Positions 3,199-64,000 of a stretch of DNA of 64,000 nucleotides are shown here, piece by piece. Each line of letters begins with the position of its first letter. Within the stretch, counting starts at the first letter, position 1. Made by a program: the position numbers and the translations under genes. Source of the stretch: Scenedesmus sp. PABB004 (taxonomy: Eukaryota); contig JABVCE010000008.1 in the NCBI GenBank assembly GCA_014905635.1, forward strand, positions 682,001 to 746,000, given 5' to 3'. Below the pieces are notes generated by a model. That model saw only the letters and a list, made by a program, of their open reading frames with translations, was not told the origin of the DNA and made no database searches.

Positions 3199-4786
3199 AT
3201 GACGGCGGCAGGCGCGGCGGCGGCGCGCTGCTGCCGCGGCGCCCGGGCCGCGCGAGCGCCGCTGCCAGCGCCTCACCCGCTGCTGCCGCCCGACCGCGCA
3301 GCCAAGCTGGATCCCTCGCCGGAGGTGCTGCAGCTCTGGCGCACCGCGCAGGTGCGCCGCCGCGCGCTGCCTCCCTGCCCAGCGCGCCACCCCACGCGCG
3401 GCCCACGCTCGTGCGCGTCCGCCGCCCCCTGCTGCTGCACAGGCGGTGTGCTTCGACGTCGACAGCACGTTGTGAGCGCGCCCGCGCCGCAGCGCACGGC
3501 GGCGGCGGGCCAGCGCTTCGGCGCCTGGGTCGCCGCTCGCCTGACCGCCCTCGCCCTGCCGCGCCGCCCGGCCGCGCCGCAGCTGCTGCGACGAGTCCAT
3601 CGACGAGATCGCGGCCTTCCTGGGCGTGGGCGAGCAGGTGGCGGCGCTCACGGCGCAGTGAGTGCGGCGGGCACGACCGGCGCGGCGGGGGGACGCCGCG
3701 GCCGCGACCGCGGCCGCGGCGGGGCGCCGAGTGCGGCCGCCGCCGCCGCGGGCGGGCGCGCAGGGCGATGGGCGGCTCGGTGCGCTTCCAGGACGCCCTG
3801 GCGTCGCGGCTGGGCATCATGGGCCTCTCGCAGCAGAAGCTTGATCAGTTCCTCAAGCAGCACCCCGCGCAGCTGTCGCCGGGTGCGCCCGCGCCGCCGC
3901 CGCGCGCGACACCGCGCGCGCGACACCGCGCGCGCCGCGCCCGCGCCGCGGCGCGGCCGAGCCCGCCCCCTCGCCGCGGCGCGGCCGCGCCGCAGGCATC
4001 CCCGAGCTGGTGCGCGCGCTGCAGGCGCGCGGCACCGCGGTCTTCCTGGTCAGCGGGGGCTTCCGCCAGGTCATCCACCCCATCGCCGAGGCCCTGGGCA
4101 TCCCGCTGAGCCACGTCTACGCCAACCAGCTGCTCTTCAAGGCGCGCGCAGCGACGCCGCGACGCAGCACGCACAGCACGCGGCGCCCCGCGGCCGCGGC
4201 GCCCGGCGCGGCGGCCGCGGCGGGACGCAGGGCGCCCCGGCGCTCTCAGCGCCGCCACCGCCGCCGCCGCCGCCGCCGCTGCGGGTCGCGCAGGAGGACG
4301 GGAGCTACGCTGGCTTTGACGCAGCCGAGTTCACCTCGCGCAGCGGCGGCAAGGCAGAGGCGGTGCGCGACATCAAGGTGCGCCGGCGGCCGCGCGTTGC
4401 TTCGGCTCGGTGGCGCCGCCGCCGCCGCCGCCCTCCTGCCCGCCTGCCTGCCCGCTGAGAGGCGCGGCCCACGGCCCGCCTGCCCGCCAGGCCAAGTACG
4501 GCTACGAGCGCATCGCCATGGTCGGCGACGGCGCGACCGACATGGAGGCGCGCCAGCCCGACGCCGCCAACATCTTCATCGGGTGCGCCGCGCCGCCGCG
4601 CCAGCGCTCGCGGCGGCGCCGCGCTCGCGCGCGCGCGCTCCCGCGCGCTGCGGCGCGCGCACTGCCGAGCCCCGCCGCCTCCACCGCCGCAGGTATGGGG
4701 GCGTGGTGGAGCGGGCCAACATCGCCGCGCAGGCCGACTGGTACCTCTACAGCATCCAGCCCCTCACCGACGCGCTGCAGGCGTGA
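3199..4786 (+). CDS. PSP: Phosphoserine phosphatase (HAD family), multi-exon, with probable transit peptide
   Basis: HAD motif I AVCFDVDST, then ESIDEIAAFLG, AMGGSVRFQDAL, LVSGGF, motif IV MVGDGATDMEAR and YGGVVER. Stop at 4786. Confidence 0.95.
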
Positions 4787-5134
4787 GCACGTGCACGCCG
4801 CGGCATGCTGCGCACCGCAGCGGCGGCGGGCGGGGCGGCGGGGGGCGTGCACGTGCGTGCGTGCGCGGGCCAGCTGCGGGCGCGGGCGGCATTCCTTGGG
4901 GGCTGGATCACCGCCCGGTGATCCAGCCGGCGCTGGGTGGTGGTGGAGGCTGGCGGCAGCGAGCTGAGAGCCAGCTGGGGCGCGCACGTGCGGCGGGCGC
5001 GCCTGCTGCAACTCCCGCGACAGCTCCGTTGCCCGCTGAGCCTCGGCTGAGCCCACCACAAGCCAACTTTAGTTAAGTCCGCGCATCCGATTCTTCGGCG
5101 CCGCCCGCCCGCCCGACTGTCGCCCGCGCGCTCG

Positions 5135-8100
5135 TCACGCCTCCTTGGTGATGAGCACGATTGCCGAGTGCGCCGCGACGCCGTACGTCCCCTGCACGCC
5201 CGCGTTGCCGCCGGGCGTGATGTCGCGCGGCGGCGGCAGGTTGGTGTCGACGAGGCGGCACCACTTGCGCCCCGCCGGCGGCTTGGGCAGCGTGGCGGGG
5301 ACCTCAAAGCCGTGCGCGTTGAACGCGACGAACACGTCGCCGCACCCGCTGCCCTGCGCGCGGCGACGCGCGGCGCGGCGGGCGCAGGGGTGAGCAGGCG
5401 CAGGCAGGCGCGCGGGCGGCGGCGGGGGCTGCGTGGGGTGGGGTCGAGCGCGCCTTGGTGTCGTGCAGCGTCCACATGAGGAAGCGGGAGTCGGGGTTCT
5501 GCCAGTTGTTCTCGTGCCACGTGATGTCCTTGGGCCTGCGCGGTGCGGCGTGCGCGCCGAGTGCGTGAGCGCGCGAGCGCGCAAGCGCGGGCACAGCCGC
5601 GCGCCGCCGCGGCCGCTGCGCGGCGGTCGCACCCCGGGAAGGTCTCGCGCGCGAGCATGGGGCAGGACCGCCGGAACTTGATGAGCTCGCTTGTGAAGCG
5701 CAGCAGCGCGGTGCGCCGCTCGTCGTCCTCGCCCGGCCAGTGCATGTGGCTGAGCTCGGTGTCGTGGCCGTACCAGTTGTTGTTGCCGTGGTGCGTGATC
5801 GCCACCTCGTCGCCTGCGGCCGTCGCGCGGCGGCCGCGGCGGCGGCGGCGGGCCTTTGGGGCGCGGGCGCGCGCGCAGCACGCGCGGCGCGGCGGGGCCA
5901 GCCCCACCGCACGTCGCGCGGTCGGGCGCGCCCGGCGGCAATGTGAGGCACGCACCCATGACCATCATCGGCGTGCCCACCGCCATCAGCAGCGCGGTGA
6001 GGTAGTTGCGCATCTGCTTGAAGCGCAGGCCGAGCACGCCGCCGTCCTTGGTCGGGCCCTCGACGCCGCAGTTCCAGCTGAAGTTGTCGTTCGAGCCGTC
6101 GTTGTTGCCCTCGCCGTTGGCGCCGTTGTGCTTGGCGTTGTACGAGACCAGGTCGGCGAGGCTGAAGCCGTCGTGCGCGGTGACAAAGTTGACGCTGTGC
6201 GCCGGCTGGCGCGCGTTGCTCGCGTACAGGTCGGCACTGCCAGACATGCGCGTCGCGAAGGCGCCCTTCAGGCCTGTGCCGGCGCGTGGGCGGCGGCGGC
6301 GGCGTCCGGGCGGGCGGCGGCGGGCGGCAGCAGCGGCAGCAGCGCCGGGCGGGAGGCAGCAGCGGCGCCGGGCGGGCGGGCGAGCGCGGTGGCTGGGCGG
6401 GCGGCGCGCACCCGGCTCGCCCTTGACGAATCGCCGCACGTCGTCGCGGTATTTGCCGTTCCACTCGGCCCACACGTCCCAGTTGGGGAACGACCCCACC
6501 TGCGCGCGCGCCGCGCAGGGGAGCGGGCGCGCGCGCTCGGCGGCCGGCCGCCGCCGCGCGCCAGCGCGCCAGCGCGCCAGCGCGCGTGCGCGTGCGCGTG
6601 CGCGTGCGCGTGCGCGTGCGCGTGCGCGTGCGCGTGCGCGTGCGCGTGCGCGTGCGCGTGCGCGTGCGCGTGCACGTGCGCGTGCGCGTGCGCGTGCACG
6701 TGCGCGCCTGGTACATGCCGAGGTCCCAGGGCTCGGCGATGAGGTGCACGCGGCTGAGCACCGGGTGCTTCGCGATCTCCCGGATCAGCGGTGGCGCCGT
6801 GAGCGGGCGGCCCTTGGAGTCTGCGGCCGCGCGCGCGCGGCGTGTGGGGACGCTGCGCCGCGCTGCACCGCGCGGCCAGCGGCGGCGTGGGCAGCGACAG
6901 CGCCAGCGCCGGGCGCGCAGCGGGCGGGGCGGGCGCGCGCACCGCGGCAGAGGCAGGAGGCGAGGTCGAAGCGGAAGCCGTCGACGTGAAACTCCTCCAC
7001 CCAGCGCACGAGCGAGTCGATGATGAGCGACTTGACCACCGGGTGGTTGGCGTTGACCGTGTTGCCGCACCCGCTGCACTCCCGCGGGCGGGCGGGCGGG
7101 CGGGCGGCGGGCGCGTCGGCGTGCGAGCGGGCACGGGGCGCCGCGGCGCCGGCGGCGCCGCCGCCGCTGCGCCACGGCAATCGCTGCTGATACGTCAACG
7201 CGGCGGACGCGCCTGAAGTTGATGAGCTGCACGTACTGGCTCGGGTCGACCATGTAGTAGGTCAGGTTGTCGATGCCCCTGCGCGTGCGCAGGCCGCCAC
7301 AGCAGCAGCGGGCCCGGCGCCGTCGGCGCGGCGCCGGCGGTCGCGGCGCGGCGGTCGCGGCGCGCTGCGCGCGGGGCACCCGCGCACCGCATGGAGATGG
7401 TGTACGGGTGCTTGTCGTCCAGCTCGGCGGTGTGGTTGTACACCACGTCCAATATGACCTGGATGCCGCGGGCATGCAGCCTGCGGACCGGCACGGTGGC
7501 GTCGGTGGCGGCGGCGTTGATCGGCTGGCCGGCCCGCCCGCCCGCCCCGCCCGGCCGCCCGCGGGCGGCGCGGCGCGGCGCGGCGCGGCGCGGCGCGGCG
7601 ACTCACGCCTTGACCATCTCCTTGAACTCGGCCGCCGCCGCGGCGGGGCCGGCGCCGGGCGAGGCGAAGCGCGACATCGGGGCCATGAAGCTGACGTGGC
7701 TGTAGCCCCACACGTTGACCATGTGCTGCCGAGGGTTGGGCCAGCGCTGCAGCTCCAGCTCGTCGTACTCAAACACGGGCAGCAGCTCCACCGCGTTCAC
7801 GCCCAGGTCCGCGAGGTAGTCGGCCTGGCGACGTGGAAGCGGCAGCGGCGGCGGCGGCGGTGGCGGTGGCGGCGGTGGCGCGGCGGCACCCCTGCCCGCG
7901 CCCGCGCGCCGCCCCGCCGGCGCCGGCGCGGGTGCAGCCGCGCCGCGGCGCGCCACCTTGTCGGCGACGCCGAGGTAGGTGCCGCGCCGCTCGGGCGGCA
8001 GCCCGCTGGACGCGCTGGCGGTGAAGCAGCGCACGCTCATCTCATAGATGACGAGGTCCTTCAGCGCGTGCCCGGGGCGGGCGTAGTCGGAGCCCCAGTC

Positions 8101-15830: not shown

Positions 15831-18743
15831 ATGCGGGCGACGCGGGGGCTGCTGGCGGCGCTGCAGCGCTTGGCGGCGCCGCCGTGGCCCGCGGCCGCGG
15901 CGCGTGCGTTCGCCAGCCGCACCACGGATGTCGCCATCGTGGGCGGAGGCCACAACGGCCTCGTGGCGGCGGTGCTGCTCGCGCGGCAGGGCCTAAAAGT
16001 GAGGTGCGGGGCCGCACAGCGCCGCTGCCGCTGCACGCGTGCCGCCGCCCGACCGCCGGCCGCCGCACCGCCGCGGCGGCGCCGCACAGGTGGAGGTGTT
16101 TGAGGACAAGCCGCTGGTTGGCGGCGCTTGCCGCACGGAGCATCCATTCCCCAAGGTCCCCGGCCTGGGGCACTCGACCGGCGCGTACCTGCTCGGCGTC
16201 ATGCCCCCGGAGCTGCTGGGCGTGCTGGGGCTGAAGCTGCCGCTCGTGCGCCGAGACCCACACTACTTCCTGCCCACCACAGGTGCGGACCTGCCCGTCG
16301 TCGTCGCGCCGCGCCGCTGCGACGCGCACGCCTTGGCCGCCGCGCCCTGGCCCGCGCCGCGCCGCCGCTTGGCGCGCCGCGAGCGAGCGCCGGCCGCCCC
16401 CGCCCGCGCGCCGCGCGCCGCGCAGGCAGCCGCTACCTGCTGCTGGGCAGCGACGAGGCGGCGATGCGGCAGCAGTTTGTCGACTTCTTCTCGGAGGCCG
16501 ACTGGCGCGCACACACGGCGCTGCAGGCCGAGATGGCCGCGCTGCGGGAGGACGTCGCGCCGACGTGGCTCGGCGAGCCGCTCTCGCTGGAGGAGACGGC
16601 GGAGCGGCACGTGCGGCCCGCGCTGCGGCAGGCGTTCGTCGACCTCGTGCGCCAGCCGGTCTCGGCCTACCTCGACAGGTGGGGCGGGCCGGCGGCGCCG
16701 GCCGCGCGCGGGCGGCGCCCGGCCGGCGTCCAAGCCCGCGCGTGCCGGCCCGCGCCGCACACGCCGCGCGCGCGCGTCGCACCGCGCCCGCGCCGCGGCG
16801 CCAGGTTTGGCTTCAAGAGCGACCTGCTGCGCGCGATGTACGCGGTAACGGACGGCTTCTCCGGCCTCAACGGCACCTGGGACACGCCCGGCACCGGCAT
16901 GAACTTCCTGGTGCACAACATGGTGCGCGCCCCGCGGCACCGCGCGACCCAGCGCGGCGCGCGTCGCCGCGCCGGGCCCGCGGCGGGTGGGTGCGCGCGC
17001 AGCGCCGCGCCGACGGGCGCCGCCGCCGCGTCCGCGGCGCGCAGTGCCGGCTGCCGGGGTCGGGCGGCACCTGGATGGTGGTGCAGGGCGGCATGGGCGT
17101 CGTCACGCAGCGCCTCGCTGCGGCGGCGATGGCGGCGGGCGCGGCCATCCACACCGGCGCGCGCGTCGACAGCATCGAGGTCCAGGACGGCCGCGCCACG
17201 GGTGCGCGCCCCGCCCGCGCCGCCCGCGCGTGCCCGCGGCCGCGCGCTCGCGCGGGCCGAGCCGCGCGCGTGCGCCGCACGAGCCCCCGCCGCGCGCGAC
17301 GCGCCTGCACGCGCGCAGGCGTGGTGCTGGCGGGCGGGTCGCGCGTGGACGCGCGCTGCGTGGTGGTCAACGCCGACCCCTTCCGCCTGCGCGACCTCGC
17401 GGGCCGGGAGCGCTTCGAGCCGGGCTTCAACACCTGGCTCGACTCGCTGCGCAAGGACGGCACGACCATGAAGGCACGCGGCGTGCCGCGCCGCCCCACC
17501 GCACGGCGCGCTGCCGCTGGTCCGCCGCCGCCCCGCCACGCCCGGGCCCCGCGACGCGCCCCGCGCCGCCCCGCGCCCTGCGCGCCGCCGCTCTGCGCCG
17601 CTCTGCTCTCTGCTCTGCTCTGCCCCGCTCTGCTTGCCACGCACCAGGTCAACCTCGCGCTCAAGGGCCTGCCGCGCTTCCGCTGCCTGCCAGAGGCGCG
17701 CGGGCAGCACCGCACGACCACGCACCTGCTGCCGGACGAGGGCGCCGTCATGGCCAGCCTCACGCAGAGCTTTGCGGACGTGCAGGCGGGGCGGCTGCCC
17801 GACTTCCCGACCATCGAGTGGTGCGCGGCGCGCCGACGCGCGGCGCGGCGCCGGCGCACGTGCGCCCGCGCCGGGCAGCGCCCGCCGCGGGGCGCACCTG
17901 CCGCGCCTGAGCCCGCCGCCCTGCCCGCGCCTCGCCCCGGCACGCGCCCCGCCGGCGTCCAGGTACTTTCACACCACCAACGACCCCTCCGTGCAGGTGC
18001 CGCACCGCGGCGCCGCGCCGGCCGCTGCACGCGCGCACGCCGCGCCGACGCACCGTGCCCGCCGCGCGCCCGCGCGCGCGCGCCGCGCCGCAGGACGCCG
18101 CGGGCCACCACAGCAGCGCGCTGTTTGTGCAGTGGGTGCCGTACGAGCTCGCGGGCAGCAGCTGGGAGGCGGAGGAGGAGCGGTACGTCGACCACCTGCT
18201 GGACATCGTGGACACCTTTGCGCCGGGTGGGCGCGCCGGCCCGCGCGCCGCGCCGGCGCCGCGCCGCGCGCCGCCGGCGCCGGGTCCCGCGCCCCCGCCC
18301 GCCGCCGCCGCACGCCCGCGCCGCGCCGCGCCGCGCGCGACGCCCGCCGCGCCGCTGCCGCGCGCGCGCAGGCACGTCGGACCTGGTCGTCGACCGCGTG
18401 ACGCTGACGCCGCCCAAGATTGAGAGCTACTTTGGCATCACGCGGGGCCACATCCACCACATTGACAACAGCTTTGGCTTCGACCAGCGCTTCCCCTACC
18501 GAACGCCCATCCAGGCGCGGCGCGGCGCGTGGCGCGTGGCGCGTCGCGCGCGGGCAGCGCGCAGCGCGCAGCGCGGCTCACAGCGGGCCGCCGCCGCCGC
18601 GCGCCGCCGCCGGCGCGCAGGGGCTCTACTCTGCGTCCGCGGGCACGCACCCCGGGGGCTCGGTGATCGGCTGCGCGGGGCACAACGCGGCGGGCTGCGT
18701 CGTGCGGGACATGGGGCTCACGCCCGCGTGGCCGACCGCGTGA
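15831..18743 (+). CDS. FAD-dependent oxidoreductase, phytoene dehydrogenase-like/PYROXD2 family, with mitochondrial-type presequence; multi-exon
   Basis: Contains DVAIVGGGHNGLVAA, VGGACRTE, GAYLLG, WMVVQGGMG and GHIHHID, and the C-terminal GLYSASAGTHPGGSVIGCAGHNAA. Confidence 0.9.
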
Positions 18744-20402: not shown

Positions 20403-22932
20403 TCACAGCTCGTCCCGTGCAGCGCCAGCAGCAGGGGCCTCGGGCAGCCGCACGGCTGCGTGGCTGAGCAGCGCGCGCTCAATTTCGTCGGCCGTGCGAT
20501 CGTAGGGCGATCGCCGCGCCGAGTATGTGCGCAGCGCGCGGGACAGCCCGGCCGCGGCCGCCGCGTAGCTCGGCTGCCCGACGACCTGCCCAGGGCGGCG
20601 GCGCCGGGCGGCCCGCGCGCGGTCGGTCGGCGGCGGGCACCCGCAAGAGCTGGCCAGCGCCCCTGCGCCCTCGCACCTCGCGAATGGTGGCCGCCACGGC
20701 TGCGTGGTCGAAGCTCACGTTGCGCCCGCCGCGCAGCGTCGGCGCGTTGGGCAGCATCACCGCCGCGCCGCGGCGGACGAGCTTCAGCAGGTTCTCCGTC
20801 TGCGGCGGCCGCCGCAGAGGGAAAACACGCGCGTGAGACCGCGGGCCGCCCTGACAGGTCGCGCGTGCACGGCGCGGCTGACCACGGTCGCAGCGCCCTC
20901 GCGCCTGCTCAAACTGGAAGGGCATGCCCAGCAGCGGAACACCGTGGAACGCCGCCTCCAGCACCGAGTGCCAGCCGCCGTGAGAGACCGCCGCGACGAC
21001 ATTGGCGTGGCCGAGCACGTCCTGCGCGACGCGCGGTCGGCCGGCGGCGGAGGGCGCGCGTCGGCGCACGAAGCGCGCTCGTGGGCGCCGGGCCCGGCTG
21101 CTGCAAGCCAGCCAGCCGGCCGCACGTTGTAGTCTGCCCACTCCACGAGCATGGTGTTGGGCCCCAGGCGGGCGGTGAACTCGGCGAGCGACAGCCCGTC
21201 CGGCAGCGCCTTGGTCGGCTTGAAGGGCCACAACACGCGTGTCGGCGCGAGCAGCGCAAACGCCTGCGCGCGTTGGCGGCAGCGCGGTTGCGGCAGCGGC
21301 CGCGGCGGCCGCGGCGGCGCCGGCACGCGGGCGCGCCCCCGAGGCTGGCGGACCTCTGCCAGCTCCAGCATGTCGCGGGGCGAGAGGACCAGCTTGGCCT
21401 GCGGCGTCGTGCCGACCGCGACCAGCACGACCCCCGCGGGCGCGCCGCCGACAAACTCCGCCACCGCGGGCGGCGAGAGTGGGTGCGCCGCGCGCGGCGT
21501 GCCCGGGCCCACCACGACCTGCGCGCGGCAGGCAGGGGGGCGCCCGCCGCGAGGCTCGAGCGCGGCCCGCGCGGGTGCAGCGCGCGCGCGCGTGCGCGCG
21601 CAGGCGCCCACCTGGTTGGCAGCCAGCGGGCGCGGCCCCTCGAGCTCCAGGCTGGTCAGCAGGACCTGCACGACTGGCGCGCAGCGAGCGCGCGGCCGCC
21701 CCAGCGCCGCGGCGAGCGCGTTGACGGGCGGCAGCACGCTCGCCACACGCGGCAGGCCCAGCTGCGCGCGCAGCGGCGCCCAACGGTCGAGCCCGCCGAG
21801 CTCGCCCAGCGCCGGCAGCACCCAGTTGAGCATGAGGTATGGCGGCAGGTTGCGCGCGAGGCCGCGCAGCGTGCGCACGTCCTCGGGGCTCGTGCCGCTC
21901 GTCATCTGCCGCGCGGCCGCGGCGCGGGCGCGCTGTCGCGGGGTCGCGGCGGCGCGGGACGCGCGGCGGCGCGGGGCGCGCGGCGGCGCGGGGCGCGCGG
22001 CGGCGCGGGGCGCGCGGCGGCGCGCGCGGCGGCGCGCGGGCGCTGAGCGCGGTGGCAGTCGCTCGCCTGCGGCGCGCTGAGCGGCAGCCCGAAGACCGCC
22101 GGCGATCCGTAGACGTCGAACAAAGGCACGCCGAGCGCGTGGGCGAGCAGGCAGGGGCAGCTGTCCGACAGCGGCGACGGCATCGCGATGCCCGCCAGCG
22201 CGTGCGCGCGGATGCCCCGCAGCGCCTGCGCGGACGCGGACGCGGACGCGGATGCGGCGGCAGGCGCGCAGCCTCGGCAGGGGGAGGGGACACAGAGGTG
22301 GCGCCTCCGAGCCTGCGGCAGCCCCACGTGCCGTCATGAGCGTCGCGTTCCGGAGCAGCATCTCGCACGGCGCCACGAACGCCTTTTGCAGCGTGAAGAG
22401 AAGCTTCAATCCAGCGACGCTGCGCTTGCCGAGCGACTTGAGCGCGGCGCCGCTGACGCTGGCGACGACGTCGTCCACGCCCGGCGCCGCCACGTGCAGC
22501 ATGCGCAGCGCCTCCGCGGTGGTGTTGCTCGTGTGCCGCGCGGCCGCGAGGCGCGCGAAGCTCTCCGACTCTGCGGGTCGTGGTGTCAGCCGTGAGGCGC
22601 GCGGGCGGCGCGTGGCAGGCGCGTGGCGGGCGCGCGGGCGGCGTGCTGTGCGCGGGCGCCGCGCGCACACACACACCCGTGACGACCGTAATGTCGTGAC
22701 CCCGCGCCGCCAGGTGCGCGGCGACGGCCATGAGATCGAGGACCGGGGAATTTTCAGCAGGACTGGCGATCACAATGACCCGCAGCGCCTCGCCGGCAGC
22801 GCCGCCGCTGCCCGCGGCTGCCGCTCGCAGCGCCTCGCCGGCAGCGGCGCCGCTGCCCGCGGCTGCCGCTCGCGCGGCGACGAGCAGCAGCGCCGCCGTG
22901 GCCAGCAGCGTGGCGCTCGGTCTCCACGACAT
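20403..22932 (-). CDS. GT1-family UDP-glycosyltransferase with signal peptide and C-terminal RDEL; multi-exon
   Basis: N-terminal hydrophobic MSWRPSATLLATAALLLVAARA and LAARGHDITVVT. UGT signature WADYN/DVLGHANVVAAVSHGGWHSVLEAAFHGVPLLGMPFQFEQ. The last exon reads ...EIERALLSHAAVRLPEAPAAGAARDEL*. Confidence 0.88.
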
Positions 22933-23289: not shown

Positions 23290-24412
23290 TTACGACAACG
23301 ACGACGGCCGCACGCGCGCCTTCTCGGCGTCCAGTATCGCGCACAGCTGCGCGACGCACTCCTCCAGCCGGCCCTCGCGGTTGACCACGACGTAGTCAAA
23401 CTCGGAGATGCACCGCGTCTCCTGACTGCGCGCGCGGCGGCGGCCGAGGCGTCGCGCGGGCCCGGGCTCGCGCGCCCGGTCGTGCAGCCCCGCCGCCGCC
23501 GCCGCCCGCGCCGCCGCCGCCGCCGCCGCCGCACCGTGCGGTCGCCACGCGCGTGCGCATTGTGTCGAGCGGCTCGGTCTTGCGGCTCACGAGGCGCCGC
23601 ACGAGCGCGGCCTCGCTCTCGGCGACGATGAAAACGCTCACCACGCCCGGCAGCAGCCGCCGCACCGTCGCGGCGCCCTGCGCGCCGCGCGCGCCGGCGT
23701 CGGCGCGGGCGCGGGCGCCGCCGCCGCGCGCGCGCACTGCACGCGGCGTGCGCCGCGCCTGCACGTCGATGCGCAGCACCACGTCCACGCCGCGGCGCAG
23801 CGCGTCGTCGACCTGCGACCGGGGGATTCCCTTGTAGTCGCCGTACACCACCGCGTGCTCCAGCAGCGCCTCGGCCGCGATCCAGGCCTCAAACGCAGGG
23901 CGCGACACAAAGAAGTAGTCCACGCCCTCGACCTCGCCCGGGCGCATCGCGCTGCGCGGCGCGGCGCGGCGGGCGTCGGCGCGGCCGCGCAGCGGCGTCG
24001 GGGGCGGGCGCAGGTGCGCTGCGCGGCCGCGCGGGCGGCGGGGCGGGCGGCGGGCGGCGCACCGCGAGGTCGCGGTCACGACGGTGTGCAGCTCGGGGCG
24101 GCGCTCCTGCAGGCGCTTGAGCACCGCGTCCTTGCCGACGCCGCTGGGGCCGCTGATGACGACCACGCGCGGCGCCGGCGCCGGCACCTGGCGCGGCGCG
24201 CGGCGCAGCGTCGGCCACGGGCGGCGGCGGCGGCGGCGGCGGCGGCGGGGCGCACGGCCGTGCGGGCGCGTGCGGCTGCGCGTGCGGGCGCCGCACCATT
24301 GGCTGCTGGCTGAGCGGGCCGAGCTCCACCTCCAGCAGCTTCAGCGTCTCGGCCACGCCCGCGTCGGGCGGCGCCTGCTGCTGCTGCTGCTGCTGCTGCT
24401 GCGGCTGCTGCG

Positions 24413-45270: not shown

Positions 45271-48200
45271 ATGGACGGCAAGTCGACCCCGGGTGCGTGG
45301 CCGATGAGCGGCCGTGTTCTCGCCGTGGGACAGTAGCATCGCGATGGCTCCGCCTGCGCCCCGGCCGGCGGGGGCCGCCAAGTCAGGGCGCCATGCGCCC
45401 CCTGGCTGCCGGAGGAGCTGCTCAGCCACACCGGCGGCACCCCGCGTCAGGACGGCGCGGCATGCGACGGCGCGGCCGCCGGCGCTGCGCCGCTGCCGCC
45501 GCGCACGGCGCGGCCTGATCCCGGCACAGCCGTGGCTTGTGCACCCTTCGACCGGCATGCCTTCGGCCTGGCGTGGCTTGACCCGACTTGGGGCCCGCCG
45601 GCGCGCGGCCGGGGCGGCGCGGCGTGCTCGCCCCTGACCCGCCGCTGTCGCGCTGCCGCGCCGCGCCACCGCAGGCGGCGCCACCGGCGACCTGGTCCAG
45701 CAGAACGCGGAGCAGACGCTGCACTACCTCGAGCTGGTCGCGGGGCAGATGACCAAGCAGCAGTTCCTGCCGCCGGGCATCACGATCACGGCGCAAGACC
45801 TGATCGCCAAGGGTGCGCCGCGGCGGGGCGCCGGCACCGCGGTGCCCCCTGCCTGCGCCCCGTGCCGCGCCCCTGACCGCGCATGCTGGCGCGCGCGCGC
45901 GCACAGGCCTGCAGGTCTGGAAGGACAGCAGCGGCACGGGGCACTCGAGCGTGGCGTGGCCGGGGCTCATCGACACGCCCAAGAAGGTCTTCAACACCAC
46001 CCAGGCCTGCTGGGCCATCATCCGCACGCCCGGCTGGAACAAGGCACGCGCAGCGCTGCGGCGCGCCGGCCGGGCGCGGCTGGCCTGGCGGGCGGCCCGC
46101 GCAGGCGCTGCGCAGTCTCTGACCGCCGCCGCCGCCGCCGCCGCCGTCTCACGCCCACCAGGCTCTGGGCATCCCGGGCGAGATCACGCCGGCCGCGACT
46201 GCCGCATCCACGGCGCGCGACCGCGGGACGAAGCCCGCAGCCGGCGCGGCGCAGGCGGCCACGCCCAAGTCGCCAGCGGCGCCCAAGTCGCCGGCAGCGG
46301 CGCCCAAGTCGCCGGCAGCGGCGCCCAAGTCGCCGGCGGCGGCGCCCAAGTCGCCGGCGGCGCCCAAGTCGCAGGCGGCCGCGCCCAAGCCGGCGCCGGC
46401 CGCGCCCAAGCCGCCGCCCGCCGAGGCCAAGCCGGCGCCGGCCGAGGACGAGGACGACACCAGCCGCGTGACCGAGGGGGTGAGACGCAGCGGCCGTGCC
46501 GTGGCTGGGCCGTGCCGGGCCTTGCCAGCCGAGGGCCCCCACCCCCTTGCTCACCGCCGCCGGCGCCGCTGTGGGCTCGTGTGCGCCGCTGCCGGCCGCA
46601 GTGCTGGCCCGGCTACTCTTTCCTGCCATGGGCCAAGGAGCTGCACGTGCTGGAGAGCCTGGCCGAGAAGCTGCGCAGCGTGACTGGCAAGCGGATGACG
46701 GGGGAGTCGCTGCACGCCGGCGGGCTGCGCGCGGTGCAGCGCCTAGGTGCGTGCGCCCGGCGGCCCCGCGGCGCGGCGCGCCGCCGCCTGGCCCAGCCTG
46801 GCGCCGCGTGGCACGCCGCTGAGCGCCGCTGAGCGCCGCCGCCCGGCGCGCCGCCCCGCGCTGCTCGCCGCTCGCCGCGCGCAGACCGGCCGCCCAAGAG
46901 CCAGTACTCGGTGTGGTGGCCGGGCGTGATGCAGGGCGACGAGCCCATCCACCTCGCGCCGTCGTACCTTGGCGGCGCGAACAAGGTGCTGGAGAACGAG
47001 CGCTGCTGCAAGGCGCTCGGCGTGCCCACCAACCTGCGCGCGCGCGGCGGCCCCGACGCCGGCGCCGCCGCAGCGGCCGCCGCCGCGGCGGCCGCCGCCG
47101 CGCCCGCGGCCATTGGCGCCGGCAGGAAGCGGGCGTCGAGCGACGGCGGCGGCGCCGCCGCGGCGGGCGGCGCCGGCGCGGGTGTCAAGCGCACGCGCGG
47201 CTCGGACGCGGCCGCGAGCGCCAAGCCGGAGCCGCCCGCAGCGGTTGGCGTGAAGCAGGAGCCGCCGCCGCCGGCGGCGGCGGCGGCGGCGGCTGCGCGC
47301 AAGCAGCAGGGCGGCGCCGACGCGATGCAGGTGGGCGGCGCGCCGGCGGGGCCCCCGAGGCGGTGTACGACGCGGCCAGGTTCAAGAGCAGCACCGCCGA
47401 CGTGCGCGCCGCGGTGGCGGCCGTGCTGGAGCAGCTCGGCCAGACGCTGGAGCTGGCGGCGGCGCACCGGGCCATCCCCTCGCGCACGCTGACGACGCTG
47501 CCGGGCGCGGCGCTGCTCACGTCGAGCCTGCACGGCGCCGCGGTGCGCGACTTTGCCGCGCACGCGCAGCGCCTGCAGGCGAGCCTGGAGGCCGACCTGG
47601 CGCTGCTGGAGCGCATGGCCGAGGCGTACGCCGCCGCGCCGCCCGCGCCCGGCGCCAAGCCCGGCGGCCGCGCGTCGCGCGGCAGCTCCGCGGCGCCCGA
47701 CGCGGGCGCGCGCAAGCCGTACGTCGCCTTCCGCGGCGCGCTCGAGGCAGACGCGGCGGACGCGGCGGCGTGGCTGCGCGACGCGCGGCAGGCGGAGGTG
47801 CTGCTCGCGCTGCGCGCGGTGCGGGACGTGCGGGCGATGTCAGACGCGCTCAAGGACGCGCAGGCCGAGGCGGCGCGCCTGCGCACGGAGCTGGCGGACG
47901 CGCGCGCGGCGTCGGGCGCGGTGCGCGCGGCCGCCGCGGAGCGGGCCGCCGAGGAGCGCGCGGCGGCTGACGTCGAGGCGCAGCGCCAGCAGCTGCAGGC
48001 GCTGCTCGCGCAGCAGCGGGCGCAGCAGCAGCAGCAGCTGCTGATGGCGCAGCAGCAGCGCGGCGCGCACGCCGGCGACGGCCGCGGCTCCGACGACGGC
48101 GCGCGCCGCAGCGCCGGCGGCGGCGCGCCGCCGCTCGCGCGGCGGCCCAGCGGCGGCAGCGAGGCGGCGCAGGAGCACGACGCCGACCTGCAGGCCGCCG

Positions 48201-48948: not shown

Positions 48949-50850
48949 TCAGTCGTCATAGACCAGGCACTCGAGCTCGCCCGGGTTGTCGGCGCAAAAC
49001 TCCTCGAGCGGGTCGCCAATCTTGGCCTTGGCGCCGTCGAGCGCGGAGCAGATGCTGCTGAACACGGCCTCCATGGAGCTGTTGCCGTCGATCTGCGGCG
49101 GCGGCGCCGGCGCCGGCGGCGGCGCGTGGGCGGCGCGTCGGCGGCGGCCGCCCAGCCAGCGCCGGCCGGGGTCTCGCCGCGGCGTGGGCCGCGCTGCGGC
49201 GGTCACCTCGTGCAGGCAGTTGGTGTAATAGCCGATGACCGCGTCCACGTTCTTGAAGTGAGTCTCCAGCCGCGTCTTGCACTGCGGCGCGGCGCGGTGC
49301 GGCGCGGCGGGGGCGGCCACGCGGCTCAGCGACGCCCGCCGCCGCGCGCCTGCCGCTGCGCGCCTGCGCCGGAAGGCCCCCGCCGCGCCTTCTCCTCGGT
49401 GTCGTCGCTGCGCTGCACGAGGCGGTGCTCGACCTCCTTGGGCGGCGGCTTGTACTTTAGGTGGTAGATCGCGCCCGTCTCGGGGTCCATGCGCCGCCCC
49501 ACGACGCGCTCGACCAGCAGCTCGCTCGGCACCTGCGCCACGACACGCGCGGCGCGGCGCGTGTCGGCGCGGGGCCGCGCCCGCCCGCCCGCCCGCCGCC
49601 GCCACTGCCGCCGCCGTGCGCCCCCACTGAGCCCCTCTCGGCACCCGCCGCCGCCCGCGGCAAGCAGCCCCTGCCGGCCCCCGTGAGCGGCTCAGCACAG
49701 CTCCGCCCAACCCAGACACAGCTCAGCCCAAACACACAGCCCAGCCAAGCGCAGCCCAAGCTCAAGCGCAGCCCAAGCGCAGCCCAAGCGCAGCTCAAGC
49801 GCAGCGCAGGTCACAGCTTGGGCTGAGCCCAAGCGCAGCCCAAACACGCAGCTCAGCCCAAGCTCAGCCCAAGCACACAGCCGCAGCTGCAGGCTCACGT
49901 CGATGAGCAGGAAGATGTCTGGCCGGATGCCCTCGCGCTCGATCGCCTCCGCCTGGCTCGCGCTGCGCGGGTAGCCGTCGAGGAGCCACCCCGCCGACGC
50001 GACGTCGGGCGTGGACAGGCGCGACTTGACCATCTCGACCACGACCTCGTCGGGGACGAGCACGCCGCGGTCCATAAAGTCCTTGGCCTTCTTGCCTGAG
50101 GGAGAGAGGGAGGGAGAGGGGGGGGGAGGGAGGGAGGGAGACAGGGAGTCAGGGAAGGGGGAGCCGGGGAGGGCGGGCCAGCGAGGGAGGCAGCGGGGAG
50201 TCAGCGGCGCGGTGGGAGCGCGAGTCGGGGAGGGCAGGGAGGGAGCTCCCGCGCGGGCAGGCGCGCCGCGCGCACCCGCGGGCGTGCCCATCGCGACCTG
50301 CTCGCGCAGCAGGTCGCCCACGGAGATGTGCACGAGGCCGTACTGCAGCGGCAGAGAGGCGGCGGCGGGCGGCGGCGTCGGGCGGCGCGCGAGCGCGCGC
50401 CGCGCGGCCCGCGTGCCGTGGCGGCCTGCGAGGGGCAACGCGCGCCGCGGCGCACCTTCTCCACGATGCGCTCGCACTGCGTGCCCTTGCCCGCCGCGGG
50501 CGCGCCCGAGATCATGACGCGCAGCGGGCGCTGCGCGGTCGCGTTGGCCTCCGCCTGCGCGCACGCAGCGGCGGCGGCGCGCGGCGGCGGGCGAGGTCGC
50601 ATCCGCCGGCGCGCGCCCCCGGGGGCTTGCAGGCGCGCCGCGGGGCTGCAATGCTGGGCGCCCAGGCGCAGCGCACCCGGACGACGAGCGCGGGCCGGCC
50701 CGCGAGCCGCGGGGCGCCTGCGGGGCGGCGCGCGGGGTCAGGGCGTCTCCCGGCGGTGGCGGGCGGCCAGGGACGTGCTAGCGCGCCCCCGCACGCACGC
50801 GCCGCGCGCCCGCCGGCCGGAGCCCGGCAGCGCTGGAGCTGCATCTGCAT
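48949..50850 (-). CDS. Plastid adenylate kinase with C-terminal CP12-like extension (Chlamydomonas ADK3 type), multi-exon
   Basis: Contains MISGAPAAGKGTQCE, HISVGDLLR, GVLVPDEVV, GWLLDGYPRS, GRRMDPETGAIYHLKY and QRSDDTEEK. The C-terminus is IGDPLEEFCADNPGELECLVYDD*. Confidence 0.93.
49690..49885. repeat. Intronic minisatellite, ~11-nt unit (CAGCCCAAGCG-like)
   Basis: Degenerate tandem copies of CAGCCCAAG/CAGCTCAAG within the adenylate kinase intron. Confidence 0.8.
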
Positions 50851-52443: not shown

Positions 52444-54979
52444 TCAGGCCTTCTTGTGGAAGCTCTCAAAGTACTCGACCTCCTTCTTGGAGCCTGCGGG
52501 TGGGCGGACGACGAGAGAGCGGCGGGCGCGCGGCGCGGCGGTCGGCGGCTGGCGGCCGGCGGCCGGCGGTCGCCCCCGCACGCGCGCAGGCCCGCCCGCC
52601 CGCCCGCCCGCCCGCCTGCCCCACCGCGCCGCGCCGCGCCGCGTGTGAGCACACGCTCACCGATCATGAGCGGCACGCGCTGGTGCACCTCGGAGGGCAT
52701 GATGTCGAGCACGCGCTCCGTGCCGGTCGAGCCCTTGCCGCCCGCCTGCTCCGCGATGTAGCTCATCGGCGCGCACTCGTACAGCAGGCGCAGCTGGCGC
52801 GCGCGCGCGGTGGACGAGCGGCGCGCGGGCGGGCGGGGTGGCGCGCTGAGCGCGTGCGCGCGCGCCGGCCGCCCGCCGCCGCCGCTCGCCTCGGCCCCTT
52901 CTCTTCCGCCCCCGCTGCACACTCAAACAAACGCCACGGCCAAGCTCACAGCGCCCGCGCCGCCGCGGCCACACCTTGCCGTTCTTGTTCTTCGCGTCGC
53001 CGGGGTAGCCGTAGATGCCTCCGTAGAGCAGCGTGCGGTGGAAGTCGCCGACGAGCGAGCCGATGTAGCGCGCCGAGTAGGGCTTGCCGCCCCACTTGGC
53101 GGGGTCCTTCAGGCTGTCCATGTACGCCTTGGTCGGCTCGTCCCACATCGCGTAGTTGCCCTCATTGAAGCTGTAGATCTTGCCCACCTCGGGCACCTGC
53201 GCGGCCGCGGTGGCGCGGGGGCGGTTGTCTTGAATGAGCTTTGAGTGGGTGGGTGAGTGCGCGCCCGCGCCCCCGCCCATGGCCCGCGTCACCCAGCGCC
53301 GCGTCCGCGCCGCCGCGCCCGCGCCGCCGCCCAGCGCCGCCGCCGCGCGCCGCGTGCGCGCCTGGATGCGGTTGTGGGTGAGCACAAACTCGCCGACGTA
53401 GGGGTCGAGCGTGAAGCCGTACACGCCGTCGCCGATCGTGAGCACGAGCGTGTGGCAGCTGGAGTAGAGGCAGTAGCCGGCGGCGAGCAGGTTCTTGCCC
53501 GGCTGGCAGACGTTGGTGATGCAGGCCTCGAGGCTCTGGTCGAGGTTGTCCCCGATCATGCACTGCTCGCTCGGCTCGTAGATGCCAAAGATGCTGCCCA
53601 CGCTGATGCCTGGGCGCCACGGCCGCGGCGCGACGCGCGGCGGCGGCGGCGCGGTGAGTGCCGCGGGCGGGGGACAGAGGGCGAGGGGAGGGAGGGCGGT
53701 GCGAGCGCGGGCGGCGAGCGCGCGCGCGGCGCCGCGCGGGCTGCGGCGGCGCGCGCACCAGCGTCGATGTTGCTGCTGCCGTCGAGGGGGTCGAAGACGA
53801 CGATGTAGTTGCCGCTCGTGGTCTCCTCGACCGCGACCGGCGTCGCCTCCTCCTCGCTCGCGATGACGCCGGTGCGGCCGCTCATGCGCAGGACGTTGCA
53901 GAAGATGTCGTTGGAGATGACGTCGAGCTTCTTCTGCTCCTCGCCCTGCAAGGAGGGAGGGAGGGAGGCGCGGGCGCGGGGCGCCGAGGGGCGGGCCGGA
54001 GGCAGCGGGAGAGCCGGGTCGGGGGGAGGGCGGGCCGCCGCCGCCGCTGCTGCGAGCGCTGCTGCTGCCCGGCGCCGCTGCTGCCGCTGGTGCTGCCCCG
54101 GCCGCTGCCGCTGCCACCCTGGCTGCTGCCGCCGCCGCTGCTGCCGCCGCGGCCGCACCTGCACGTTCTCGCCGGTGCCCGCCACGCCGGTCAGGCTGCT
54201 GATGCCGCTGCGGCCCACGGCCGCGGCGATCTGCTTGCACGCCAGGCTGATGGAGGACAGCACGGTGGCGAGCTCAGAGTCAATCTTGCCCTTGCGCTCC
54301 TCCTGCGGGGCGCGCAGGGGGCGAGGGCGGCGGCGGCGCGCGCGGCGCGGTCGGCGCGGCGGCGCGGGCGCGCGAGCGCGCATGCACGCGGGGCGCCGTG
54401 CCGGCGGTGGCCCGCCTCCTTCTCCACCAGCCCCGGCCCGGCCAGCGCTGCGCGCCGCGGGCGGGAGCGGCAGCGGCAGCGCCAGCGCCCAGCGCGGCGC
54501 GTCGGCGCTGCCGCGCCGCGTCGCGCGCCGCACCTGGAGCAGCCAGGTGGTGAAGGTGTAGAGCTCAAACTGGCTCTTGTTGTAGGACGCGGGCGCGGGC
54601 GCGGACTTGGCCTCCACGGCGGCGGCCTGCGGCGCCGGGGGCCGACGACAGTGAGCTGCGCCATGCCCCCACCCCCCGCGCCCGCCTGCGCGCGCATTGG
54701 ACCCGCTGCCGCGCCCTCACCGCCGCCTTCACGCTGCGCTGCGCGGGAGCCACGCCGGCAGGGGTCGCGGCCTTGCCATTCTGCGAGCGCAGGCGGGGCT
54801 GATTGATGGCTCGACCCCGGCAGCGCCGCGCCGCGGCGTGCGGAGCCTGGGGCGGCCGCATTCGGCCGCACCTGCAGCGACGCCACCACCGGCGCGCCGA
54901 AGGCCACGCGCGGGGCCGCGGCGCGGCGGGCGGGCGCCGCGGCCTTGGCCGACAGCGAGCTGCGCTGGGCGAGCGCCAT
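52444..54979 (-). CDS. FBP: Chloroplast fructose-1,6-bisphosphatase (redox-regulated type), multi-exon
   Basis: Transit peptide MALAQRSSL..., [39 protein letters not shown], Cys-containing regulatory loop SEQCMIG...[37 protein letters not shown] and [11 protein letters not shown]. Confidence 0.97.
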
Positions 54980-55248: not shown

Positions 55249-58200
55249 ATGGCGGCGGCGCCGGGCGCCCTGCCCCGCCTCGCATGCGGTGGCCTGGCCG
55301 CGACGGTGGCCCTGGCGGCGGCGCGCGGCGGCGCGCTCGCGCCGTGCGGCGCAGCAGCAGCGGCAGCAGCAGCAGCGTGGGCGCAGCCGCACGCCGCGGC
55401 GCCGGCAGCAGCGGCAGCAGCGGCTGCCTTGCCGCGCCGGCGGGAGCGGTGGGGCGCCGCGGTGGCGCCGCTGCCGAGCAGCAGCGGCGGCGGCGTGCTG
55501 CGCGGCCTCGCGAGCAGCGCAGCGCTGCCCGCGGACGTGCGGCGCGCGCTGGCGGACGACGACGCGGCGGAGCTGACGCCCGCGGCGGTCGTGGCGCGGC
55601 TGGACCGGGTGATCGTGGGCCAGGAGGAGGCGAAGCGCGCGGTCGCGACGGCGTACCGCAACCGCTGGCGCCGGCAGCGCGTGGCCGACCCGGAGCTGCG
55701 GGCCGAGATCACGCCCAAGAACCTCCTGCTCATTGGGCCCACCGGGTGCGCGCTGCCGGGGCCCAAATGAGCAGGAGATGGCAACACGAGGGGCGCTGTG
55801 CCCGCGGCGCCGGCGCCGCGCGACCAGTGCCGCGACCGGCGCGGCTGCGCCCGCGCCGCGCCGCAGGTGCGGCAAGACCGAGATCGCCCGCCGCCTCGCG
55901 AAGCTCGCGGGCGCGCCGTTCGTCAAGGCGCGCCCGCCGCGCCAGCCGCCGCCGCCTGCCCAGCCGCGTGCGCGCGCGCGGCGCCCGCGCCCACATGCTG
56001 CGCACGCCCGCCCACGCCCACGCCCGCAGGTTGAGGCAACAAAGTTCACGGAGGTGTGTGTGTGCTTTGTATCTGCCGCGCGGCCCGGCTGCCGGGCCGC
56101 CACCGCCGCCGCTCGGGCGGGGCGTGTTTGTGTGTGGGCGCACGAGTTGCGGTCGCGTGCGCCGCGTGAGCAGACTCCCGCCGCCGCGCCAGGTCGGCTA
56201 CCACGGCCGCGACGTCGACAGCATCGTGCGCGACCTGCTCGAGGCGGCGGTCGGCGTCGTGCGCGCGCGCCTGCGCGCCGCGGCCGCCAAGCAGGCGCGC
56301 CGCGCCGCGCCGCGCGCGGCAGCCGCGCGACGCGCCGGGCCGGCCGACGCGCACCGGCGCGCACCTCGGCTGCGCGTCCTCGGGGTGCGCGGGCGGCGAG
56401 CGCCACCGCGCCCGGTCCGCGCCGCAGATCGCCGAGGCGGTGGAGAGCCACATCATCCACGCGCTGCTCGGCGAGGGCGCGTCGCTCGAGGCGATCGCCG
56501 GCGCCCGCGAGCGCTACCGCGCGGGTGCGGCGCAGCGCGGCGCATCGCGGCACGCCCACGCCGCGCCGGCCCGGCCCGGCCGCCGCCGGCGGCGCGCGGC
56601 CCTGACGCCCCGCCACGCGCCGCCGCGCCCGTCGCGCGCTGCCCCGCCAGGCGAGCTCGAGGGCGCCCTGATCGAGGTGGACGTGCCCACCAGCCGCGGC
56701 GGCGGCGGCGGCGAGCCGGGCGGGCTCACCATCCAGGTGGGCGCCCGCACGCGCGCGACGCGCGGGCGCGCCGCTCACGCCACGGGCGTGCACCGCGCGC
56801 CCACGCCCCGCGCCGCGCGCGCCGCGCCGCGGCGCGCAGGGTGGGCAGCTGAGCATGTCGATCAGCCTCGCCGGCATGTTTGGCGGCGGCCCCGGCGGCC
56901 CCGGCGGCCGCGGCCGCGAGCGCCGCACGATGACCGTCGCCGAGGCGCGGCCGCTGCTGGAGGAGGCCGAGGCCGACCGCGCCGCGCCGCCCGAGGCGGT
57001 GCACGCAGAGGCGGTGCGCGCCCAGCGTCGCGCCTGCTGCTGCCTGGCGGGCCCCGCGCGGGGCGGCCGGACGGGGCGCCGGCCCGCGCTCGCGCGGCAG
57101 CGCCCGCACGCACCCGCGCGTGCGCACGGCGCGGCCTGACACCTGAACCGCCGCTGCTGCCGCCGCTGCTGCCGCCGCTGCTGCTGCCTCCAGGTGCGCG
57201 TGGCCGAGGCGGAAGGCATCGTGTTCATCGATGAGATCGTGAGCCACGCACAGCACGCACAGCACACAGCACGCACAGCGCGAACAGCGCACACAGAGTC
57301 GGTTTGGGGCGTGCGCGAGCGCGCACCCGATCCCGCCGCGGCGCCGCCTGAGCGCGTGCCGCCGCGCCCCGCGCCCGCGCCGACCGCCCGCGTGCCGCCC
57401 GCAGGACAAGATCGTCAACCCCGCCAACACGCTACGCCACGGTGCGCGCGGCCGGCGGCGGGGCCGGCTGCTGGGCGCCTGGGCCGCTGGGGGGCGCCGA
57501 GCTTCTTCGTGCGCTGACGCCGCGGGCCCGCCGCCGCGCCGCGCCGCCGCCAGGCTCCGACCCGAGCGCCGAGGGCGTGCAGCGGGACCTACTGCCGCTG
57601 ATCGAGGGCAGGTGTGGGCTGCGCTCGCGCCGCCGCCCCGGCGTGGCGCCGTTGCCGCCGGCTGGCTCGTCAGCCGCGCACCGCGGGCTCGCCCCAGCAG
57701 CGCCGCGCCACGCGCCCGCACCTGCGTGTCCCTGCCCCCTTCTCTCTCCAACAGCACGGTGCCGACGAAGCACGGCCCGCTCTCGACCAACCACGTGCTG
57801 TTCATCGCCGCCGGCGCCTTCACCAGCGCCAAGCCCAGCGACATGATGGCGGAGCTGCAGGCGCGCCGGGCGCCCGCGCCGGCCGCCGCGCGCGCGCGCC
57901 GCCCGCGCGCGCCTCACCCGCCGCCGCCGCCGCCGCCGCCCGCGCGCCGCGCGGCGCCCACAGGGCCGGCTGCCGATCCGCGTCGAGCTGTCGGGCCTCA
58001 CGGCGGCTGACTTCGTGCGCATCCTCACAGAGCCAGAGTGCAACATGCTCTACCAGCAGCAGGTGCAGGACGGGGGTCAGGCTCGGGCTCAGGCTCGCGG
58101 CGCGCGGCTGGGGTTGGCGCTGGCCCGCCCGCTGCCCCCCCCCAGCGCGCGCCCCCACGCGGCCTGCCACTGCTGTCAGCAGTCTGACCCGCGCCCGCGC

Positions 58201-58702: not shown

Positions 58703-58825
58703 AGCAGCAGCAGCAGCGGCGGGGGAGCTGCAGCGCGCTACACGCACGTCATCGACGCGGCGGCGGTGCGCGAGAAGCTGGCGGGCCTGCTGCAGCAGCA
58801 GGACCTGGACAAGTACATACTGTGA
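55249..58825 (+). CDS. hslU: HslU/ClpY AAA+ ATPase subunit of the HslUV protease, with mitochondrial-type presequence; apparent frameshift at ~58670
   Basis: Contains [132 protein letters not shown] and the C-terminal DLDKYIL. Confidence 0.95.
58616..58696. repeat. (GGC)n polyGly-coding repeat in the last hslU exon
   Basis: Long GGC run with a register shift at about 58670. Confidence 0.9.
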
Positions 58826-63373: not shown

Positions 63374-63713
63374 GCGGCGGCGGCGGCAGCGGCACCGCCT
63401 CCGGTGAGCTTGCTTGCGCCGGGGCTCGCGTGCCTGCAGCGGTGCGTCCCCTGGATGCCGTCTGATGATCAGGAGCGGGCTGCTGCGCGTCGCCTGACCG
63501 GCAGCGCGCTTTAGCGCGACGACGCTTCGAACGCGGGCGCCGGCGCCGCCCAATCCGGGGGCCCCGCGCTGCCTCCGCGCCACACCCGGCGCGCCCCGCT
63601 CCCTGCGCGCCACACACGCTCCGCGAGAAGCTCCTGTCACTCGCCCACGCCCCTCGCCGCACCGCGCAGCGAGCAGCGGCGCGCCGCCTCTGCCGCCGCG
63701 CGGCGGGCGGGGC

Positions 63714-64000
63714 ATGGCGTCCAAGCGGTCCCTGAGCCTGCCGGCGGCTGCCAGGCGGCCGTCCAAAAAGTCCACCAAGCAGGCGCGGGCGGCGGCGGCG
63801 CCGCGCGGGCCCCCGCAGCGCGCGCAGCGGCGGCGGCGTCGCCGCCAACCGCCCCCCCCCCCCCCCCGCGCAGGCGCTGCCGCACGACAGCCAGCCGCAG
63901 GCGGGCGATGCCGACCGCGCGCTGCTGGCGGCGCTGATGGCGGCCGAGCCGGGCGCGCAGATGGCGATGGACGCGGACGACGACGACCTGGACGCGCCGC
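63714..64000 (+). CDS. 5' end of an unidentified gene, truncated by the window edge
   Basis: ATG at 63714 gives MASKRSLSLPAAARRPSKKSTKQ. A GC donor at 63783 and an acceptor at ~63873 lead to ALPHDSQPQAGDADRALLAALMAAEPGAQMAMDADDDDLDAP... Confidence 0.5.
   Translation, partial: MASKRSLSLPAAARRPSKKSTKQARAAAAPRGPPQRAQRRRRRRQPPPPPPRAGAAARQPAAGGRCRPRAAGGADGGRAGRADGDGRGRRRPGRA

Follow-up and report, generated by a model that had tools for sequence, protein, structure and literature searches.

GC-AG introns are known from many eukaryotes, and their share varies widely. Human GC donors amount to about 1% and carry a stronger remainder of the site (PMC3167603), plants average 1.2% (PMC6310983), and in mammals GT>GC conversions exceed the reverse (PMC3488318). 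For the haptophyte Emiliania huxleyi, GC donors were reported at 56% of 241 hand-mapped junctions and at 61-64% in other sets, checked by reverse transcription-polymerase chain reaction, and ascribed to the 65% genome GC (PMC4028052). In the pelagophytes Aureococcus anophagefferens and Pelagomonas calceolata, 14-17% of introns are GC-AG, against 0.32% in a low-GC relative (10.1101/2024.10.30.620910); an older figure nears 40%, and the cause has been called unclear or ascribed to GC (10.1101/2024.10.30.620910; 10.1101/2021.10.25.465678; PMC3167603). For GC-rich algae in general, the reason for high GC-donor rates has been called unclear (PMC3167603). In a 121-genome table, whose counts of major non-canonical sites combine GC-AG and AT-AC and vary with the annotation, the green-algal maximum is Ostreococcus tauri (173/2,044, 8.5%), with 8,057/114,347 (7.0%) in Micractinium conductrix, 7,090/124,435 (5.7%) in Chlorella sorokiniana, 239/101,050 in Volvox, and 19/67,746 in Monoraphidium (PMC6310983); the available text of that paper does not discuss the elevation in green algae. 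A search of the open-access literature found no account of GC-AG introns being frequent in Sphaeropleales. Here, the GC-AG introns of a stretch of 64,000 nucleotides (nt) from Scenedesmus sp. PABB004 (GenBank assembly GCA_014905635.1, contig JABVCE010000008.1, positions 682,001 to 746,000; hereafter the window) are described.

Genes were modelled using a self-trained hidden Markov model (HMM) that permitted both GT and GC donors, followed by hand curation. The curated set comprises 140 introns in 24 models, and all statistics given below are from this one 64-kb window. Donors were GT in 111 introns and GC in 29, a GC share of 20.7% (95% interval 14.6-28.0%), and GC donors were thereby confirmed, at the level of sequence, as a major class in this window. 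The 11 best-conserved genes have a GC donor in 19 of 83 introns. Five genes searched for homologs have 13 GC donors among 47 fixed junctions, a figure that overstates the share since these genes were picked partly for having several GC donors. GC introns occur in 15 of the 24 models, mostly housekeeping enzymes. The HMM output contained 159 introns, of which 124 were identical to curated ones and 35 were discarded or moved by hand; many of the latter had GC donors and lay in low-complexity coding DNA or bridged neighbouring genes. If some of the discarded introns are real, the true GC share would be higher than 20.7%. The window genes are intron-dense, at about 6 introns per model, and a pair of intronless genes, encoding a PAP2 phosphatase (13365-14324) and an Arf-family GTPase (14947-15540), lies within this region.

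The original prediction for this DNA had named 23 GC donors, described as more than 20 in 64 kb, each following CAG or AAG, continuing GCGCG or GCACG, and nearly always in phase 0. All 23 are present in that form, 17 on the plus strand and six on the minus strand (6707, 7212, 20904, 23758, 49388, and 53361), and 22 are in phase 0, with 7212 in phase 2. The rebuilt genes added six more (398, 204, 3212, 5453, 22066, and 22331), giving the total of 29. The stereotyped context holds for every donor named earlier and fails for two of the added ones, 22066 (CAG/GCGAG, with the slash marking the exon end) and 22331 (ACG/GCACG, uncertain).

Homology fixes 18 of the 29 GC junctions on both sides and four on one side, and seven have none; for the 23 named earlier, 12 are ungapped in homolog alignments, five are continuous in Pfam or PDB coordinates, four are one-sided, and two (46044 and 63783) are without homology. 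This protein continuity suggests that the GC introns are removed by the major spliceosome. Thirteen junctions were ungapped against homologous proteins, all in phase 0 except where stated. In isoamylase 3 (ISA3, minus strand), the introns at 5354..5453, 6500..6707, and 7074..7212 (phase 2) were ungapped in 5/5 close homologs, and the NCBI protein ISA3 [Scenedesmus sp. PABB004] (P0001), all 779 residues of which map to the window in 15 exact blocks, employs all three GC donors. The next-best protein matches for three window genes were Tetradesmus and Scenedesmus proteins. In HslU (plus), the introns at 55928..56029 and 57861..57963 were ungapped in 2/2 algal homologs and a bacterial one, and that at 56295..56427 in 2/2 algal homologs; the intron at 57861 has no GT alternative within 45 nt. 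The S1-domain protein (plus) has GC introns at 26302..26416, 27083..27278 (GCACG donor, AAG acceptor), and 27477..27583, all ungapped in 5/5 homologs. An oxidoreductase gene (plus) has one of GCACG type at 17474..17647, ungapped in 4/4 homologs, and one at 18515..18620, ungapped by a strict test in 1/4 and in register with several homologs. The two in p28 axonemal dynein light chain (plus), at 44203..44327 and 44451..44591, were ungapped in homologs, and both have a GT intron at the same site in a metagenome locus, L013.

For five further junctions, all phase 0, the flanking exons run on without a break in Pfam or PDB coordinates: phosphoserine phosphatase (PSP) at 4142..4293 (plus; PDB 6q6j, 133/134 to 135/136), adenylate kinase (ADK) at 49282..49388 (minus; PDB 1zak, 165 to 166/167), guanylate kinase at 23678..23758 (minus; PF00625, 103 to 104), kinesin at 32310..32443 (plus; PF00225, 283 to 284), where the HMM favoured a GT 36 nt downstream, and a SufD-like gene at 42335..42460 (plus; PF01458, 74 to 75, continuous by offset). 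At four others, also phase 0, a profile match runs to or near the junction. For fructose-1,6-bisphosphatase (FBPase) at 53197..53361 (minus), the upstream exon reaches the PF00316 end and the next exon starts from PF18913 position 1; for kinesin at 31057..31142 (plus), the upstream exon fits PF00225 through its last residue (93) and the next exon is too short to scan; for kinesin at 32552..32666 (plus), the upstream exon fits PF00225 through its last residue, at position 319 of 327; and for a UDP-glycosyltransferase (UGT) at 20800..20904 (minus), the upstream exon fits PF00201 through its last residue and the downstream exon is unmatched.

The remaining seven were placed by other means. Two phase-0 introns of a MutS-family gene (minus), at 80..204 and 286..398, were placed by open frame and codon bias, the family being recognized from other exons; no PDB or Pfam support was found for either junction, the PDB search for the latter being uninformative. 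Intron 1 of PSP (3212..3301, plus, phase 1) and an intron of GCACG type with a hand-picked acceptor in a gene without a Pfam match (46044..46161, plus, phase 0) have no GT alternative within 45 nt, and the PSP junction has no homology. In the UGT gene (minus), an intron with a GCGAG donor at 21906..22066 (phase 0) was placed by open frame and codon bias, and a possible intron after ACG at 22226..22331 is uncertain, being an HMM call without homology for which a GT-only run took a short GT alternative. The last, at 63783..63873 (plus, phase 0), is an HMM call without homology in a gene truncated at the window end. All in-frame GT..AG pairs within 45 nt were enumerated, and none gave an identical protein at the GC introns. 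The sole GT alternative of equal length, at kinesin 32310, exchanges 12 residues of a conserved motif, within an unbroken match to the kinesin profile. Sliding of the junction gave no GT-AG reading for any of the 29, and all 29 acceptors are AG (28 CAG, 1 AAG).

GC donors followed a sharp context rule. Exonic AG precedes 28/29 GC donors and 44/111 GT donors (p=7e-9), and within the 47 homology-fixed junctions it precedes 13/13 and 13/34, respectively (p=1e-4). GAG or TAG ends the exon at 0/28 of the AG-class GC donors and at 9/44 of the corresponding GT donors (p=0.01). CAG or AAG together with +5 G was found at 28/29 GC donors, and +5 G with a purine at +3 at all 29. The context MAG/GYGCG (M, A or C; Y, C or T) is shared by 24 GC and 18 GT donors, non-AG exon ends precede 1 GC and 67 GT donors, and MAG with +4 G occurs at 0 GC and 8 GT donors (p=0.004; p=0.01 vs background). 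When six kinds of donor defect were counted, using classes defined post hoc, 113 of the 140 donors had one, 19 had none, and eight had two; 28 donors with two or more were expected (permutation minimum 18, 20,000 permutations). Among GT donors, +4 A was present in 2/44 after AG vs 20/67 after other exon ends (p=0.001), which is the AG// vs //GURAG trade-off published among donors (PMC11732430). Pairing scores to a canonical U1 end were 14.3 for GC, 14.65 for all GT, and 14.0 for non-AG GT donors, and by this crude count the GC donors are no weaker than the common GT donors of the window.

Other candidate signals were examined and rejected. Phase 0 accounts for 26/28 AG/GC and 35/44 AG/GT donors (p=0.18), so it is not a separate signal, and the phase-0 bias of GC donors arises because exonic AG is required. 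An A at +3 was present in 4/29 GC and 0/111 GT donors (p=0.002); given background trinucleotide counts of 295 GCA, 1517 GCG, 5 GTA, and 174 GTG, about 4.7 were expected in GC donors, and +3 A as compensation was rejected since 4/29 fits the GCA:GCG background. An origin of GC donors by slippage in (GC)n runs was also rejected, the runs after GC donors being no longer than elsewhere (4.25 vs 4.0 and 4.9, p=0.73). On the acceptor side, the 140 introns have 139 CAG, 1 AAG, and 0 TAG, with 91 ending CGCAG, and no pyrimidine tract of U was found near these acceptors. A branch-like motif of CT(G/A/C)A type lies within the last 70 nt of 15/29 GC and 38/111 GT introns. Of the sense-strand MAG/GCRCG sites (R, purine), 27/47 are donors.

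The composition of the window is extreme, with G+C at 78.8% overall, 94.6% at third codon positions, and about 86-88% in introns; CpG observed/expected is 1.19, that is, no CpG depletion. A comparative paper on the genome of this strain gives 78.5% GC, vs about 56% in most Sphaeropleales, and in its available text the words 'intron' and 'splice' are absent (PMC12571836). In the reading that we consider likely, GT became GC by drift in old U2 introns wherever exonic MAG and +5 G kept the site above the threshold of the spliceosome. A strong AT-to-GC substitution bias would have taken the lineage to 79% GC and replaced T at +2 by C in ordinary, old U2-type introns. An unmodified spliceosome would accept a donor when its summed contacts exceed a low threshold, in practice one defect: no exonic AG, C at +2, G or T at +4, or no +5 G would each be tolerated singly, and two only rarely. 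GC donors would then survive only behind CAG or AAG, presumably through contacts with U1 and U5 loop 1, with +5 G, presumably through U1 and U6, and without +4 G. In this permissive context, T would still be weakly preferred, about 8-fold over the intron background, donors would sit near mutation-selection-drift balance at about 57% GC, and the GCG or GCA following GC would mostly mirror intron composition.

Several observations fit GC-biased drift at +2. Intron interiors contain GCGCG and GTGCG at 404:39, so that T at +2 is enriched 7.8-fold in the permissive context; read as mutation-selection balance (ln 7.8 = 2.05), this suggests weak selection on +2 T. Neither length (p=0.95) nor GC content (p=0.20) separates GC from GT introns. 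Orthologous intron positions were aligned for p28, using 80 metagenome loci that were kept. L013 (48% GC) alone shares both GC positions, and it has GT introns at both; loci L004, L007, and L052, which have an intron at or beside a GT position, carry GT. A scan of viral contigs for FBPase loci with introns found none. The original prediction had named GC pressure as the driver, and it is supported by the contrast between the window and most of its relatives and by GT at both L013 sites; the same attribution has been published for Emiliania and pelagophytes (PMC4028052; 10.1101/2024.10.30.620910).

The following points weigh against drift with an unmodified spliceosome. The intron-side strengthening expected from humans is missing in the GC donors (+4 A in 1/29, +6 T in 2/29), and the preference for +4 C over +4 G exceeds background (p=0.01), which is unexplained by canonical U1 pairing. 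The rate depends on more than GC content, given that GC donors are far commoner in Emiliania, at 65% GC. The orthologue comparison consists of two sites in one unrooted comparison, the defect classes were defined after the data had been inspected, the U1 score is the author's crude count against a canonical U1 end, and everything rests on a single window. The donor motif is also not avoided in internal exons (6 seen vs 4.8 +- 1.7 expected), so other cues, such as intron context, must help to choose the donor. One such site, a perfect CAG/GCGCG at 4025, lies 29 nt inside a PSP exon; alignment with human PSP shows that it is read through, and it is a natural decoy for what else defines donors.

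The alternative that the spliceosome itself has changed (at the U1 5' end, the U6 ACAGAGA box or its methylation, or contacts of U1C, LUC7, SNRNP27K, or PRP8), with +4 C counting as a match and only loose checking of +2, was considered unlikely. It would account for +4 C in 28/29 GC and 74/111 GT donors, for the avoidance of +4 G in weak donors (1/67 non-AG GT donors vs 11-12 expected), and for GC donors that lack +4 A and +6 T, and METTL16 and SNRNP27K are known to have co-evolved with splice-site preference (PMC11732430). However, C is already at about 70% at +4 in the background, non-AG donors keep GTGAG at 6-7 times background (20 vs about 3) as standard U6 and U1 predict, +3 A and G are at background ratio in GC donors, and T is still preferred at +2. 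An altered small nuclear RNA (snRNA), such as the adapted U1 or U6 that the original prediction had raised as a possibility, does not appear to be needed by the data, because GC donors reach the same total canonical-U1 pairing score as GT donors; an Rfam scan of the window gave 0 matches, with no snRNA in the 64 kb. A bolder version, in which extreme GC drift reshaped the spliceosome of the Scenedesmaceae lineage such that a variant U1 5' end or U6 ACAGAGA box (or a lost or changed methylation and its reader) pairs with GYGCG, is likewise improbable. If true, CAG/GCGCG would be a one-mismatch site with +2 nearly free, and the lineage would offer a case of composition-driven co-evolution of snRNA and splice site with low-GC sister species as controls.

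That GC donors are selected for their weakness, to allow regulated retention or alternative splicing, appears quite improbable: alternatively spliced genes of other species are enriched in GC donors (PMC3488318) and intron retention is frequent in Emiliania (PMC4028052), but here they are spread over 15/24 models, mostly housekeeping enzymes, they follow sequence context alone, and T is over-represented rather than under-represented relative to background. Still less credible is a recent introner-type transposon family inserting after AG with a GC donor. Such GC-donor introners have been described in pelagophytes (10.1101/2021.10.25.465678), and all GC introns here but one follow AG, most in phase 0. 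Against this, the 30 dust-filtered pairs of similar introns include one GC-GC pair, with the long matches at 70-80% in low-complexity DNA; terminal inverted repeats are as in GT introns and junction repeats measure 4.0 vs 3.9 nt; GC-intron lengths are spread over 81-208 nt with no narrow peak; and 2/2 tested positions (of 29) are common to the distant GT-intron relative L013. Introner origin was therefore rejected on family similarity, inverted repeats, length, and position. An artefact, in which T at AGGT was miscalled as C or the true donors are neighbouring GT sites, was judged very improbable. The junctions come from the assembled sequence and protein comparison, 7/29 have no homology support, and the assembly seems to contain at least one frameshift (near 25800), all of which would fit an artefact. 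However, conserved valines after genomic AG are intact in 24/27 cases, with one alanine, which led to rejection of base-calling error as the source of GC donors; where the exon end is not AG, the GTGCG motif has GT in 44/44 cases and GC in 0/44; and GT alternatives require indels or swaps within conserved motifs. U12-type introns have a fixed ATCCT-type donor extension and depend on a minor spliceosome. The GC donors continue GCG, ACG, or GAG, and U12-type identity was rejected; minor snRNAs and introns were not found in Chlorophyta in a published survey (PMC11347168).

For annotation, the practical consequence is that a GT-only predictor fails at every GC intron: when GC was forbidden in the HMM, 27/29 were misbounded and 2/29 lost. 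The expectation that GC donors break standard gene prediction thus holds for the GT-only HMM and not for public protein P0001, in which 3/3 isoamylase junctions are right. For HslU and the S1 protein, searches with a limit of 2000 residues returned no identical public protein. Extrapolated to 39.8 Mb, the roughly 26 genes of the 64 kb give some 15,000-16,000, about double the 7,092 that have been published for the strain with that genome size (PMC12571836). Genes may be fused or missing in the public annotation, and GC donors are a candidate cause of the low published gene count.

Other features of the window were recorded. The ISA3, HslU, and S1 homologs of Scenedesmus sp. NREL 46B-D3 (window 5135-58825) are all from a 493,305-base contig, and the Tetradesmus HslU and S1 matches are both from a contig of 6,027,792 bases; the ISA3/HslU/S1 region is probably syntenic in NREL 46B-D3 and Tetradesmus. 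In the S1-domain gene, the RS-rich N-terminal part and the downstream part are out of frame (25750-25870), probably from an assembly frameshift near a C run, or else from an unmodelled intron. The frames of the HslU C-terminal part (58600-58740), the kinesin tail (34700-34800), and the gene without a Pfam match (47300-47360) also seem to shift in low-complexity GGC or C/G runs, possibly through assembly errors. The p28 axonemal dynein light chain gene (PF10211) is intact at 43376-44801, and kinesin spans 30349-35488. The family of this alga is usually described as non-motile. The MutS-family gene at 1-1826 matches MutS II/III only in Pfam, and we take it to resemble meiotic MSH4; together with intact p28, it would fit cryptic stages that are flagellate or sexual. 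Simple repeats extend the longer introns, namely a CCCAAG-type unit of 10-11 nt (49533-49898), a 6-nt unit (6580-6700), and CT runs (29290-29400). Two small genes that the original prediction had not named have strong codon bias, one at 2575-2750 (minus) without a Pfam match and one at 19027-20053 (plus) with three GT introns.

Set beside the described systems, the window presents a known phenomenon and is a new and unusually high green-algal case. It shares with the GC-donor-rich genomes of Emiliania and pelagophytes high GC together with more than 10% GC-AG (78.8% GC and 29/140 here, in this window only). The likeness to Emiliania is close: a GC-rich alga with GC-AG as a major class, a retained AG acceptor, an attribution to GC, and miscalling by ab initio predictors (PMC4028052). 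It differs in that Emiliania is a haptophyte at 65% GC with a GC majority, whereas the present alga is chlorophycean, at 79% GC, with about 21% GC donors confined to MAG/GCRCG. Pelagophytes are intron-poor, and many of their introns are introners that carry terminal repeats near 210 bp (10.1101/2021.10.25.465678); the window, in contrast, has intron-dense genes, no introner signs, and old intron positions. The same trend exists among other green algae, and 21% is 2.5-3 times the highest of their pooled values (PMC6310983). As in animals and plants, a weak +2 may be offset by a stronger remainder of the site, in the AG// class (PMC3167603, PMC3488318, PMC11732430), but there GC-AG introns are about 1%, and in the window such compensation would consist of exonic MAG and +5 G only, with C rather than A at +4. 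With intron-dense genes, apparently syntenic relatives of about 57% GC, and a sharp rule (MAG, +5 G, no +4 G), the lineage makes a clean test, in which orthologous introns and snRNAs could separate drift at permissive sites from a change in the spliceosome and measure selection on +2.

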